DNA of 63,515 bases, counting the filler, from Octopus bimaculoides (Eukaryota), in assembly GCF_001194135.2 (NCBI RefSeq). It is 6 parts of 6 records of this genome, joined end to end, with 100 filler letters (N's around TTAATTAATTAA, not from the genome) between each part and the next. Parts side by side here need not be neighbours in the genome. Positions count along the whole stretch, not along the records: positions 1 to 23,567 come from NC_069001.1; positions 23,668 to 55,034 come from NC_068982.1; positions 55,135 to 58,270 come from NC_068983.1; 3 more parts are not named here. One strand, written 5' to 3'. Position 1 is the first letter of the stretch. Every line of letters starts with the position of its first letter. A model generated the notes under the pieces. It did not search any database and was not told where the DNA came from. It saw nothing but the letters and a program-made list of their open reading frames with translations. The position numbers and the translations under genes were made by a program. This document shows positions 6,187 to 58,080 of the stretch, in pieces.

Positions 6187-6560
6187 GTTGTGTTATACTA
6201 ATAACTTTGACACTATTTACATTATTTACATTTGACGGATATTTGTCCTTACCTTGTTTGTTGTTAACACAACGTTTTGGCTGATACACCCTCCAGTCTT
6301 CATCAGGTGTCTTGGGGAAATTTCGAACTTGGGTTCTCATTTTTTTTTTTTTTGTAATGGATCCTCTCACAGACGAGGGCATGTCCTGCCCTTTTCTGCT
6401 ACTCTTCTAGCTCTATATGAAAAAAAAAAATTTCCTCAAGACACCTGATGAAGGCTGGAGGGTATATCAGCCGGAACATTGTGTTAACAAGATGAGGACA
6501 AATATCTGTCAAATGTAAATAATGTACATAATTCCTCATCTCTTAAATATAGAACTGTAA
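6187..6560. mobile_element. Penelope-like terminal repeat family H1, inverted pair, each arm with a degenerate hammerhead
   Basis: 6200-6335 and 6430-6535 are reverse complements. Hammerhead motifs lie at 6266-6311 (-) and 6440-6485 (+). Confidence 0.8.
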
Positions 6561-6574
6561 TAACCTTGAACTGG

Positions 6575-6755
6575 ATTGGATTTCCCATGTACAGTTCACT
6601 GCAAGACGAAGGCCTCAACATGTCCTCTCCACCAACCACAGTCTGATGTGGAGGCCATGAATTTGAGCTTGATATCACACTGCTTTGATGAGCCCATATT
6701 GTGCCACCCTGGCTCAACAAGGCTTTGCTGAGGGGTGCAGTTTTTGTACTCATAG
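6575..6755 (-). mobile_element. RTE-clade LINE 3' end fragment
   Basis: Minus strand encodes ...EAFVLQ*T, resembling the EAFVLQWT/EAYVQQWT C-terminus of RTE ORF2. Confidence 0.55.
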
Positions 6756-6894
6756 CCAGGAGTAGTTAAGTCAAATACATTCTCCCCCAGTGTTAAACTG
6801 GTACCCCTTGCTACCAGTCTCAGAGGTGCTATAAAGGGTCACGGGTACTATTGTTCCCTCCTAATTGAAAAGTTAGAGAAAAAGTCTTTAATCC

Positions 6895-7375
6895 TTCGTC
6901 TTTTACTTGTTTCAGTCATTAGGCTGAGTGGGGCCATGCTGGGGCAACACCTTCAAGTATTTTAGTTGAACGATTCGACCCCAGGACTTATTTTTTTTAA
7001 AGTCTGGTACTTACTCTATTGGTTTCCTTTGCTGAACCACTAAGTTATGAGGATGCAAACCCACCAACACTGGTTGTCAAACGTTGGTGGGGGATAATCA
7101 CAGACAAGAACACACATGTTTGTGCATGCAGACATACATATGCATGCGTGCACACACACACACACACACACTAACACACACACACACACACACACACACA
7201 CACACACACACACTATGGATGTCTTTCAGTTTCTGTCTACCAAATCTACTCACAAGACTTTGGTCAGCTCAAGGCTATAAAAGAAATCACTTACCCAAGG
7301 CACCACTACCATGCTGGGGGAATGAACTCAGAACTATGCGACCAGAAACCAAACTTCTTACCACACAGCCATGCT
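6895..7375 (-). mobile_element. SINE family B, full length with internal (CA)n
   Basis: Tail at 6895-7090, microsatellite, then head ending cttaccacacagcc at about 7370. Confidence 0.85.
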
Positions 7376-54300: not shown

Positions 54301-55162
54301 ATATTATGAAAGTTTAAAATGCATCTTACGATCGTTTCACGGATATTATTGTCTTTATAATGTAATCTAATATACATAAGCATATTGGCAATAATTCCGC
54401 TCTTCAGAGATGTATAAAGTTATTATATATGTGTGAAAAAACGAATGGCATGTAAAATAAAATGTTATAGGATGATATTAATTAAAATGTTAAAAAATAT
54501 TAAGAATATTAAAAATATTAAAATATATGCTGTCCTTTGAGAATTTATAAATGTAATCCCTCATATACTTTGGAAAATTCATATTTTTCATTTGTAGAAA
54601 TTTTATATGATATATAGTTTTTTTGAAGTTGTTATATTTATAAAATGGAATAGATTCCTATAGAGAGAGAGAAAGATGAAAGATAGTACAGTCCAACTAA
54701 TGTAAATAGTGTACTTAATGACTAAAGAGTTTAGTAAAGATGATGAGTGCTAACTCTGAAGCTAACTGCTTGAGTAAAATGAAAGGTATAATATTAGGAG
54801 TGGTTGGATTGGAATAATGATGATCAGATTTTGTATTTGGTGAATGTGCATATATGGTAGTGATATGGGTGAGGTGAAGAAGAAGCATTAGGGAGGTGTA
54901 TTCTTTGTATATGTATGCAGTGTAGAGTTGCAGGAAAACCTGAACTTTACTAATAGGAGTAATACTTTCTGGAACCTTTTAAAGGACTGGTTACTTGGAA
55001 GAATCTGAAAAGTGTGTAAAGACATATCGTGGCANNNNNNNNNNNNNNNNNNNNNNNNNNNNNNNNNNNNNNNNNNNNTTAATTAATTAANNNNNNNNNN
55101 NNNNNNNNNNNNNNNNNNNNNNNNNNNNNNNNNNATATATATATATATATATATATATATAT

Positions 55163-55727
55163 ACGGCAAAAAAGAAAATGGAGGGGATACAAAAATGACG
55201 TACATCAGCCGGTAGACAGTCTATTTATTCTAAAACATAAGGAAGTATTATAAGAATACATACACATGCAAAGACTGTGTGTAACACACATATGTACTAG
55301 TAATAGATAAAAGAGTAAAAGATCAGTTCCTTACGGCCGTTTCTGCCAAGAAGCCACGATATACTCATGTTATCTCCATCTGTTCAGTGTCCTGTAGGGA
55401 TCGGTAGATAAAGTGTGGATGATGAGTGTGCCTATATGCTTCTTCAGAGGCATACTCACCATCCAAACTTTATCTACCCATCCCTTACAGAACACAGAAG
55501 AGATGGAGATAACATGGAGAATATCGTGGCATCTTGCTAGAAACGGCCGTAAGAAACTGATCTTTTACTCTTTTATTTATTACTAGTACATATGTGTGTA
55601 ACACACAGTCTTTGCATGTGTATGTATTATAATACTTCCTTATGTTTTAGAATAAATAGACATATTAGAATGTCTACCGGCTGATGTATGGCATTTTTGT
55701 ATCCCCTCCATGTTCATTTTTTGCCGT
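55163..55727. mobile_element. 565-bp fold-back palindromic element
   Basis: Arms 55163-55432 and 55450-55727 are reverse complements with scattered mismatches and small indels, around a 17-nt loop. Confidence 0.9.
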
Positions 55728-56699
55728 TTAAATTAAATGTAAACCACTTTTTACCGCCGCTCATATATTACACTCGATTGCGAAATTAATAATTGGGTAC
55801 ACTAACAGCAGTATCTTGGATAGGCACCATCCCTTGGTTGGCTTCCCAACCTCTAACTCTCACGAAANNNNNNNNNNNNNNNNNNNNNNNNNNNNNNNNN
55901 NNNNNNNNNNNNNNNNNNNNNNNNNNNNNNNNNNNNNNNNNNNNNNNNNNNNNNNNNNNNNNNNNNNNNNNNNNNNNNNNNNNNNNNNNNNNNNNNNNNN
56001 NNNNNNNNNNNNNNNNNNNNNNNNNNNNNNNNNNNNNNNNNNNNNNNNNNNNNNNNNNNNNNNNNNNNNNNNNNNNNNNNNNNNNNNNNNNNNNNNNNNN
56101 NNNNNNNNNNNNNNNNNNNNNNNNNNNNNNNNNNNNNNNNNNNNNNNNNNNNNNNNNNNNNNNNNNNNNNNNNNNNNNNNNNNNNNNNNNNNNNNNNNNN
56201 NNNNNNNNNNNNNNNNNNNNNNNNNNNNNNNNNNNNNNNNNNNNNNNNNNNNNNNNNNNNNNNNNNNNNNNNNNNNNNNNNNNNNNNNNNNNNNNNNNNN
56301 NNNNNNNNNNNNNNNNNNNNNNNNNNNNNNNNNNNNNNNNNNNNNNNNNNNNNNNNNNNNNNNNNNNNNNNNNNNNNNNNNNNNNNNNNNNNNNNNNNNN
56401 NNNNNNNNNNNNNNNNNNNNNNNNNNNNNNNNNNNNNNNNNNNNNNNNNNNNNNNNNNNNNNNNNNNNNNNNNNNNNNNNNNNNNNNNNNNNNNNNNNNN
56501 NNNNNNNNNNNNNNNNNNNNNNNNNNNNNNNNNNNNNNNNNNNNNNNNNNNNNNNNNNNNNNNNNNNNNNNNNNNNNNNNNNNNNNNNNNNNNNNNNNNN
56601 NNNNNNNNNNNNNNNNNNNNNNNNNNNNNNNNNNNNNNNNNNNNNNNNNNNNNNNNNNNNNNNNNNNNNNNNTATATATATATATATATATATATATAT

Positions 56700-58080
56700 A
56701 TTAGACAAAATGAGATAACAAAGCCAAGGCTGTGAGGAGGTTTCAGGACATTTATAAGGAAAGAGATATAGATATAGTCTTACAGCTGTTTCTGGGACAT
56801 TATGAGTATCCCTTCATCAGAGACGATGTGAGATGGTTAAATATAGGTTCTCAATCATTTACTACTACATATTTGGACATGCAAGCGGGTACATGTGTGT
56901 GTGTATGTACACGTGTGTGTGTGTACATGTGTGTGTATATTTATGTATATTTATGTATGTATATGTATGTGGGTATATGTATATATATATATATGTGTGT
57001 GTGTGTGTGTATATATATATATATATGTATGTACATGTGTATATATGAGTGAGTGTGTGTGTATGTGTATATATGTATACATATGTACCTTTATGCACGC
57101 GTGCGTTTGACTGTGTAAGCGCGTGTGCGCCTGCGCGTATATGCGTGTGCATGTATGTGTAAATGTATGTATGTATGCATATGCACACATGTATATGTAC
57201 ATGTGTGCGCGCGTACGTATGTTATTATACCTTCTTTCCTCATCTCATTCCTACCTATCATACTAACCTATCACATACGTCTATTTATAGAAATTTGACA
57301 TTGTTATATTCTTCCCTCCATATTAAATTTTACTACTAAAACTACTACTCACTTTAGTATCACCCCACCTACACCTTTTCTCTACAGCTCTATCATGTCA
57401 CCCCTACTCACATATCTCACACTTATTCACTTCTTACCTTCTCATCTCTTCCTGTCCCTTCCCCATTCCTCTTCCATCCTTCCCTCACATTATCTTGACC
57501 ACCAACTAACACTCCTTTTCTCACTTCTTTTGCGCTTTCTTCTTTTTTCTTTTTTCTTTTTCATTTTTTCTCACTTTTTTCTCTCTTTCTTTTCTCTTCC
57601 TGTTTTCATTTTGACCAATCTCCTCATTCTAATCATACACATCTCTCACCTCCATCTATCCACAAATACGACTAATGCATTCTCACATTTTCATTCACAC
57701 CACAAAACCCTGTCGAATGAGCAACACAGAACCAACGGCTTCATACTTTGAAATGACTAAACATGAACTACTATTGGAACTTACATACCATGTACAGGAA
57801 ACGTTTTACCACTTCTATACCACTTTCCTCGAATAATGGAACAGCAACTACAATATCTTTATATATCTTATATTCTATTTCTACTTTCATTCTCTTATTT
57901 CCCTCTATATTCCCTATCTCCTCCTTTTCCATAATGATTCTTTATTTCATCGTCTCTGATGGAGGGATATCCATAATATCCCAGAAACAACTGTAAGAAT
58001 ATATCTATATATTTTTGCTAATAAATGTCCTGAAAACTCCTCACAGCCTTGTGTTTGTTATCTCATTTTATCTAATATAT
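56700..58080. mobile_element. Penelope-like element family H3: inverted ~135-bp hammerhead-bearing repeats flanking a decayed interior
   Basis: 56700-56835 and 57945-58080 are reverse complements and both end in (TA)n. The interior at 57680-57840 weakly resembles a GIY-YIG-proximal C-terminus (SHFHSHHKTLS...). A related tail lies at about 24020-24220. Confidence 0.7.
56777..56824 (-). ncRNA. Minimal type I hammerhead ribozyme motif, conserved core residues present
   Basis: GUCU-CUGAUGA-A-GGGAUA-cucauaa-UGUCCC-A-GAAAC-AGCU-GUA-AGAC: stem I 4 bp, stem II 6 bp flanked by unpaired As, palindromic stem III ACAGCUGU, and GUA triplet. Confidence 0.65.

Follow-up and report, generated by a model that had tools for sequence, protein, structure and literature searches.

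Penelope-like elements and the octopus window

Insertions of Penelope-like elements (PLEs) are described as heavily truncated at the 5' end and accompanied by an adjacent inverted, truncated copy lying head to head, with a tail of 30-40 bp on one end and a target-site duplication (TSD) of 8-10 bp around the insert (PMC3846280; PMC8557442). Their pseudo-long terminal repeat (pLTR) overlaps the first codons of an open reading frame (ORF) of ~830 aa (Arkhipova et al. 2013, PMC3846280; Craig et al. 2021, PMC8557442). The minimal hammerhead ribozymes of metazoan PLEs are characterized as type I: stem I is short, one more nucleotide is present behind position 9, and the 15.2-16.2 segment is palindromic; dual motifs are reported ~100-700 bp apart on opposite strands, and most copies are regarded as probably truncated PLEs (Cervera and De la Pena 2014, PMC4209133). 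The stretch considered here, 63,515 nt from the genome of Octopus bimaculoides (assembly GCF_001194135.2) and called the window throughout, holds seven hammerhead motifs of three families, H1, H2 and H3. It is a concatenation of unrelated pieces with spacers at ~23.6, 55.1, 58.3, 60.4 and 61.8 kb, and the closeness of loci within it is therefore meaningless; the three loci with paired motifs lie on separate sequences (G000 C21, C2 and C3).

A literature search found no paper on octopus PLE hammerheads, Repbase and Dfam lying outside that search. The accessible text of an O. vulgaris repeat paper does not mention hammerheads (PMC13282606), and a giant squid paper gives 235 Rfam hammerhead hits (PMC6962438).

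Three families as truncated ends of coding elements

A sequence-only reading of the window had proposed that the motifs terminate short non-autonomous retroelements, recurring as outward-facing pairs and mobilised by a Penelope reverse transcriptase (RT). All seven CUGANGA...GAAAC motifs were confirmed at the places given for them, though only three keep the catalytic core (36801-36846, 56777-56824 and 28938-28964), and the three pairs do face outward, the left copy being on the minus strand and the right copy on the plus strand. Taken together, the evidence makes it very probable that H1, H2 and H3 are the 5'-truncated 3' ends of three different PLEs encoding RT and a GIY-YIG endonuclease, and that each outward pair is a single insertion. 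The Penelope RT as maker of the copies is upheld. Each motif is linked to an RT/GIY-YIG ORF of its own, and the families are not non-autonomous as supposed.

The link is clearest for H1, in which 24 of the 30 loci retrieved by searching with the endonuclease protein show the order endonuclease, tRNA-like segment (the head), (AAT)n run and hammerhead. Whole units of ~2.6 kb with a hammerhead at each end are present at loci L257, L259 and L274, where direct pLTRs in a partial tandem arrangement flank the ORF and overlap its start. At L259 a 787-codon open frame runs through the upstream hammerhead, the RT (Pfam RVT_1, E 1e-10), the thumb and the greater part of a GIY-YIG domain; its protein has 37% identity over 96% to an 836-aa protein of Anolis carolinensis. 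Being near this protein and without a zinc-finger linker, H1 appears to be of the Penelope/Poseidon type. The GIY-YIG domains were assigned from motifs that we take to be characteristic of this endonuclease; Pfam gave no GIY-YIG hit on the query ORFs, yet PF01541 is present in some H1 homologues. At L007 and L010 a long (GAT)n or (GAA)n stands in place of (AAT)n, at L010 in both arms.

In H3 the ORF, with GIY-YIG motifs and a cysteine linker, gives way to a 3' untranslated region (UTR) of >1 kb and then the motif in 9/30 ORF loci, many of the remaining loci having a flank that was too short or gapped; the window copy at 56845-58220 is such a 3' UTR, starting at the final ORF codons. Among 20 extended H2 loci, two have RT and endonuclease upstream.

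The RT remnant at 24.3-25.5 kb had been put forward as a possible mobiliser. Its coding part (24.5-25.5 kb) has ~70% identity to the H2 ORF and it possesses its own 3' end, which makes it a sister family of H2 and not a shared helper. As a candidate helper it was rejected: its RT relatives end differently, none of 30 loci having a full H1, H2 or H3 end, with weak short matches in two.

In the remnant's family, core position 6 of the hammerhead is C or U, not A, in all four copies viewed (L117, L125, L131, L160).

Pairs as single insertions

In the genome an H1 15-mer has 10,276 exact matches, an H2 18-mer 369 and an H3 18-mer 2,022, the reversed control giving 0 in each case. Pair orientation is non-random. 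Among the first 100 H1 places (on C1), 15/17 neighbours within 2 kb are head-to-head (P 7e-8), and in a sample of 112 H1 arms, taken from 70 loci around most of those 100 places minus 5 overlapping duplicates, 40/45 neighbours within 1.5 kb are head-to-head. Direct neighbours amount to 2/45, both of them separate insertions, and there are no tandem arrays. Five close neighbours were seen for H3 in 100 places, four of them head-to-head and the fifth tail-to-tail.

A TSD of at least 7 bp, mostly 9-15 bp, frames 23 of 42 H1 pairs (40 from C1 and the window's two), against 1.3% of shuffled pairings; H2 and H3 copies sit in microsatellites. Exactly one arm is tailed in 37/40 H1 pairs and 7/7 H3 pairs. 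The observation that no intact ORF lies between the copies holds, although the spacer of the first pair (6352-6421) is itself a fragment of the H1 ORF.

Some results count against the single-insertion and PLE-end reading. H2 has no pairs (0/25 loci; none among 100 places), 19/42 H1 pairs are without a clear duplication, and the orientation counts come from a position-ordered H1 sample, selected by the ribozyme 15-mer, that spans the initial 5.7 Mb of a single chromosome. The clade names, Neptune-type for H2 and Nematis-like for H3, are provisional, being read from motifs rather than from a tree.

A different account would have the copies as independent non-autonomous retrozymes, with ends set by hammerhead cleavage via circular RNA and with PLE RT borrowed in trans. 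Most H1 copies are indeed short and ORF-less, only 4/108 arms reaching >50 nt upstream of the head, their hammerhead cores are conserved, and animal retrozymes are thought to be derivatives of PLE terminal repeats (bioRxiv 10.64898/2026.07.22.740005). This account is nevertheless very improbable and largely refuted: beside the lack of tandem arrays, all three family ends pass without a break into ORFs, none of the 5' ends coincides with the cleavage site, and 33 short and 51 ORF-linked H1 copies have the same commonest letter at 207/207 columns, so that the short form is not a separate lineage. An identity as retrozymes or tandem arrays was therefore rejected, the copies being neither tandem units nor non-coding.

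Integration of paired copies

To make a pair, the enzyme of the element likely cuts both DNA strands ~12 bp apart, one cDNA being primed from each cut; it is reasonably probable that the two internal RT start sites each give rise to one of the cDNAs, whose truncated ends are then joined, in some cases around a template-switch fragment. A precedent is found in the Anolis PLE protein: in vitro it cuts the two strands and extends both, and RT begins at two sites, one at either end of the tail (PMC11167929). In H1, the 3' ends fall into two classes, -45..-23 and -3..+13, and the tail-less arm stops about 35-40 nt before the end of the tailed arm.

The alternative, in which the ends are those of PLEs and self-priming (snap-back), on a single cDNA or on an antisense template, gives rise to the inverted arm, was favoured by Arkhipova et al. 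2013 (PMC3846280), who argue for it, and is considered rather unlikely here. It would account for palindromes at some junctions, notably the hairpin at the 5' end of the head, for the 5/32 abutting H1 pairs with near-equal 5' breaks, and for the within-pair shared departures that lie slightly above chance (8 sites; 0.0020 vs a null mean of 0.0009 and maximum of 0.0021), the last two of which are also awkward for priming from two strands. Under snap-back, however, the longer arm should belong to the same class in every pair, and in H1 the split is 22 vs 13, tailed arms being longer in 22/35 pairs; the breaks are mostly far apart, differing by at least 28 nt in 27/32 abutting pairs, and some junctions contain unrelated ORF pieces. 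These unequal breaks, the split in arm length and the ORF pieces are a better fit to dual priming than to simple snap-back. Arm divergence is 6.2% within pairs vs 6.4% between unrelated arms, a signal too small to tell one template from two.

Hammerhead cleavage sets neither end of the insertions, contrary to the suggestion that the elements are ribozyme-terminated: H1 extends ~50 or ~90 nt beyond the cleavage site, and of six 5' ends near that site none is on it. Cleavage is also reported to be dispensable for insertion of the Anolis PLE (PMC11167929).

At L016:1745-1765, telomere-type TTAGGG repeats occupy the junction of two head-to-head H1 arms.

With ~10,000 short paired insertions whose TSDs, tails and breakpoints can be counted, H1 offers a test of PLE integration, one that comes out in favour of priming at both cut strands rather than self-priming. 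On read-through, the pairs are computed to fold into long double-stranded RNA, a likely substrate for A-to-I editing. Raw RNA reads of a different organism, from fragmented libraries, match both strands equally and peak on the terminal repeat, with no heaping of read starts at either the cleavage site or the head, which libraries of this type would not reveal; they show an A>G/T>C excess that is indistinguishable from CpG decay of the reference copy.

The tRNA-like segment of H1

In the autonomous H1 element a tRNA-like segment with A and B boxes (8-18 and 53-62 in tRNA numbering) lies between endonuclease and hammerhead, and it follows the endonuclease in 28/30 loci. The chances are about even that H1 is an autonomous Penelope element with an acquired tRNA-derived RNA polymerase III (Pol III) promoter in its terminal repeat, making its own short interspersed element (SINE), a short RNA that would exceed the coding copies in number. 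As to the template, the slightly favoured proposal is that the segment drives a ~270-nt Pol III RNA, containing the hammerhead and both RT start sites, which would serve as the main template for insertions and be copied thousands of times by the enzyme that the element encodes. What survives of the proposed "short non-autonomous" elements is that most H1 copies apparently derive from a short tRNA-headed, SINE-like template cut from the terminal repeat of the autonomous element.

The distribution of 5' ends carries this proposal. Among 43 arms that reach the segment, 32 stop at -10..+5, a density of 0.047 per nt vs 0.004-0.010 elsewhere in the head; the pile-up is higher than the truncation rate in the rest of the unit by a factor of at least four. 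Three of the 32 alignments are doubtful, and with 29 P is still <1e-14; in a partly overlapping sample 15/22 arms stop at -7..+5. The pile-up suggests a short Pol III RNA from the element itself, and TTTT is absent in 31/33 head-started arms, which is compatible with Pol III.

It is nonetheless a serious, if tentative, possibility that the segment is an inert relic of an old SINE in the PLE 3' UTR, with the pile-up arising from RT stalling, or from junctions formed, at a hairpin on long RNA polymerase II transcripts. Such a hairpin (-5.4 kcal/mol) lies exactly at -7..+5, where RT might stall or junctions become fixed; as a tRNA the segment scores below threshold and has no acceptor stem, and the head with (AAT)n resembles a tiny SINE, four of 30 head copies ending at or before the run. 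The relic account does less well with other observations, as RT passes comparable or stronger hairpins in the head and hammerhead without such a pile-up, unpaired solo copies also end at the head, and the head runs on into the hammerhead in 26/30 copies and into a different shared body in none. A separate SINE family in which the head joins other bodies is likewise unsupported, no such body being found in the 30 copies. Beyond the hairpin, a functional promoter is disfavoured by tRNA searches: Rfam and default ARAGORN (0/13 loci) call no tRNA at the segment, and a tRNA-Ser(ACT)-like call by ARAGORN appears only at relaxed thresholds, which also yield many chance calls.

It was also considered whether the same promoter transcribes the downstream 2.6-kb coding unit in tandem arrays, which would be improbable. 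The sense strand of the 2.75-kb H1 unit has no TTTT common to the copies, with 10 runs in 23.3 kb from 11 copies vs 28-51 expected; the H3 ORF has 75 TTTT runs in 11.7 kb (~6 per kb). The P for zero shared TTTT is ~0.004-0.08 depending on the null (codon-aware 0.04-0.08), and as the copies, from one family, are not independent, transcription of the whole unit by Pol III is only a lead.

An H1 subfamily (L012, L102, L259) has a short deletion after (AAT)n and a changed last B-box position; it makes up 9/51 ORF-linked and 0/33 head-started copies, and includes both L012 arms. Near some H1 copies lie tRNA-Pro-like genes, called by ARAGORN at 95% of threshold (L186:198-269 and 570-641; L088:859-934).

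SINEs are normally partnered with long interspersed elements (LINEs) via a shared 3' end. If the promoter proposal is true, H1 would be a SINE-like RNA arising inside a Penelope terminal repeat, with its partner enzyme identified, and would link PLEs, Sm-alpha-type elements and retrozymes; in the whole-unit form, Pol III would be transcribing a retrotransposon that codes for protein. No paper turned up by the literature search describes a tRNA-like promoter within an autonomous PLE, Repbase and Dfam, which may hold these families, again lying outside it.

Hammerhead cores and stems

As the sequence-only reading had it, the motifs belong to the minimal type I hammerheads known from PLEs, in which stem III is palindromic. 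In loci chosen via ORF or upstream sequence, with the ribozyme ignored, the 11-nt core is intact in 34/59 H1, 12/17 H3 and 18/26 H2 copies; most genomic copies are decayed, at ~4% off the commonest letters. Within the window, three of the four defective copies have single core changes (Table 1), and the H1 copy at 36941 has its 5' core deleted. A strict hammerhead descriptor gave a sole high-scorer in the window, 36801-36846 with a score of 15, and 30 shuffles peaked at 10, once. Rfam shows no hammerhead among the 150 of 246 window matches listed, nor on H1 loci; being blind to these minimal motifs, Rfam scans support neither side.

The sequences of stems I, II and III differ among the three families, yet pair in each; within families there is no useful covariation, the copies decaying from near-identical sources. 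When two copies are cofolded, stem III pairs intermolecularly for H1 and H3, not for H2, and the hammerheads are predicted to be active solely as dimers. H1 has both a GUU cleavage site and the G10.1-C11.1 pair. In H2, position 17 counted by hand in the first 100 listed of 369 exact matches is G in 69, U in 23, A in 5 and C in 3; H3 has the site GUA, with A opposite A where G10.1-C11.1 normally closes stem II. Slower cleavage is expected from G17 in H2 and from the A-A at the base of stem II in H3.

A fourth fold-back pair, absent from the sequence-only reading, is found at 55189-55688 with arms 87% identical. In both arms a hammerhead-like 5' half-core, in altered form, is followed after ~35 nt by GAAA, a palindromic stem III and GUA.

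Other features of the window

Features belonging to the three families and to the RT remnant are collected in Table 1. Further repeats surround them. At 23960-24220 an older relative (~72%) of the H3 3' end and tail lies tail to tail with the 3' end of the RT remnant, and a SINE-like repeat with a tRNA-like head at 29070-29400 adjoins H2. A dispersed SINE-like family has nine copies in the window (225-343, 442-560, 2536-2654, 13496-13614, 19051-19169, 32260-32378, 37753-37871, 44856-44974 and 48031-48149). Short repeated units around (TA)n at 46788-46920 form an inverted pair with a tandem continuation.

Table 1. Coordinates of H1, H2 and H3 copies, their target-site duplications and the RT remnant (positions along the window).
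Feature	Position	Strand	Remarks
Left TSD, H1 pair 1	6199..6210	+	12 bp, 1 mismatch vs right copy
H1 left arm, pair 1: tail-less 5'-truncated PLE 3' end; hammerhead 6266-6311 (G12>A)	6211..6341	-	93% to 3' repeat of ORF-bearing L259
70-bp piece of the N-terminal part of the H1 ORF, caught at pair 1 junction	6352..6421	-	94% to L259 nt 321-389, E 1e-26
H1 right arm, pair 1: tail ~6530-6557; hammerhead 6440-6485 (A13>G)	6427..6557	+	
Right TSD, H1 pair 1	6558..6569	+	
Decayed RT/thumb remnant, probably Neptune-type (24500-25474), and the 3' end belonging to it (24254-24396), whose hammerhead is partly deleted	24254..25474	-	
H2: probable Neptune-type PLE 3' end in (TA/TG)n microsatellite; hammerhead ~28934-28969, G at 17; unpaired	28830..29011	-	
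Left TSD, H1 pair 2	36702..36712	+	11 bp, exact
H1 left arm, pair 2: tailed; intact-core hammerhead 36801-36846	36713..36931	-	5' end within (AAT)n run after tRNA-like segment
H1 right arm, pair 2: tail-less; hammerhead internally deleted	36931..37015	+	
Right TSD, H1 pair 2	37016..37026	+	
H3 short inverted arm: tail-less, (TA)n end; hammerhead 56777-56824, intact core	56692..56846	-	
H3 long arm: last ORF codons, ~1.1 kb microsatellite-/pyrimidine-rich 3' UTR, hammerhead 57952-57999 (A9>G), (TA)n, 130-nt tail	56845..58220	+	75% over 1430 columns to ORF-bearing L288

Comparison with known systems

H1, H2 and H3 are members of the PLE class, and as the layout of their outward pairs is already published, no new class is needed. 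The octopus insertions share with the published ones the truncation, the inverted copy, the tail on one end, the TSD and the overlap of pLTR and ORF; they differ in that the layout was counted on 40 pairs, in arms whose inequality opposes the self-priming proposed by the authors of that description, in the H3 tail of ~130 nt, and in the >1 kb 3' UTRs of H2 and H3. The hammerheads have the features set out in PMC4209133, with the differences that H2 is mostly G17 and H3 is without the G10.1-C11.1 pair; no cephalopod family appears in the text available of that survey.

A known system close to H1 is Poseidon PAc of Anolis carolinensis (Frangieh et al. 2024, PMC11167929), in which the ORF likewise overlaps the hammerhead; the 836-aa Anolis protein that matches the H1 ORF at 37% is presumably PAc itself. 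No tRNA-like segment features in the description of PAc as far as it is given there, whereas H1 has one. For that segment, the schistosome SINE-like elements Sm-alpha and Sj-alpha are a parallel: in them a type I hammerhead comes after a Pol III promoter of tRNA-related sequence, at high copy number, an arrangement like that of H1 with its putative promoter (PMC6765202, PMC2770079). They are, however, described as tandem units cut to monomers by a canonical hammerhead, with no autonomous partner named in those accounts, whereas in H1 the head lies inside an autonomous element and the copies are dispersed head-to-head pairs. Judged by their A and B boxes and defined 5' end, the short H1 copies would behave as tRNA SINEs comparable to Sm-alpha, but do not form a lineage of their own.

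Metazoan non-LTR retrozymes resemble the octopus copies as short, non-coding, PLE-related repeats with type I hammerheads (Cervera and de la Pena 2020, PMC7229834); they are described as tandem units of 150-450 bp with circular RNA, whereas the octopus copies are non-tandem and continuous with ORFs. Finally, Helenus and Cassandra (Kojima 2024, PMC10886601) are like H1 in placing a tRNA-like or 5S-like sequence within a terminal repeat; these, however, are non-autonomous long terminal repeat elements, whereas in H1 the repeat is the pLTR of an autonomous PLE.

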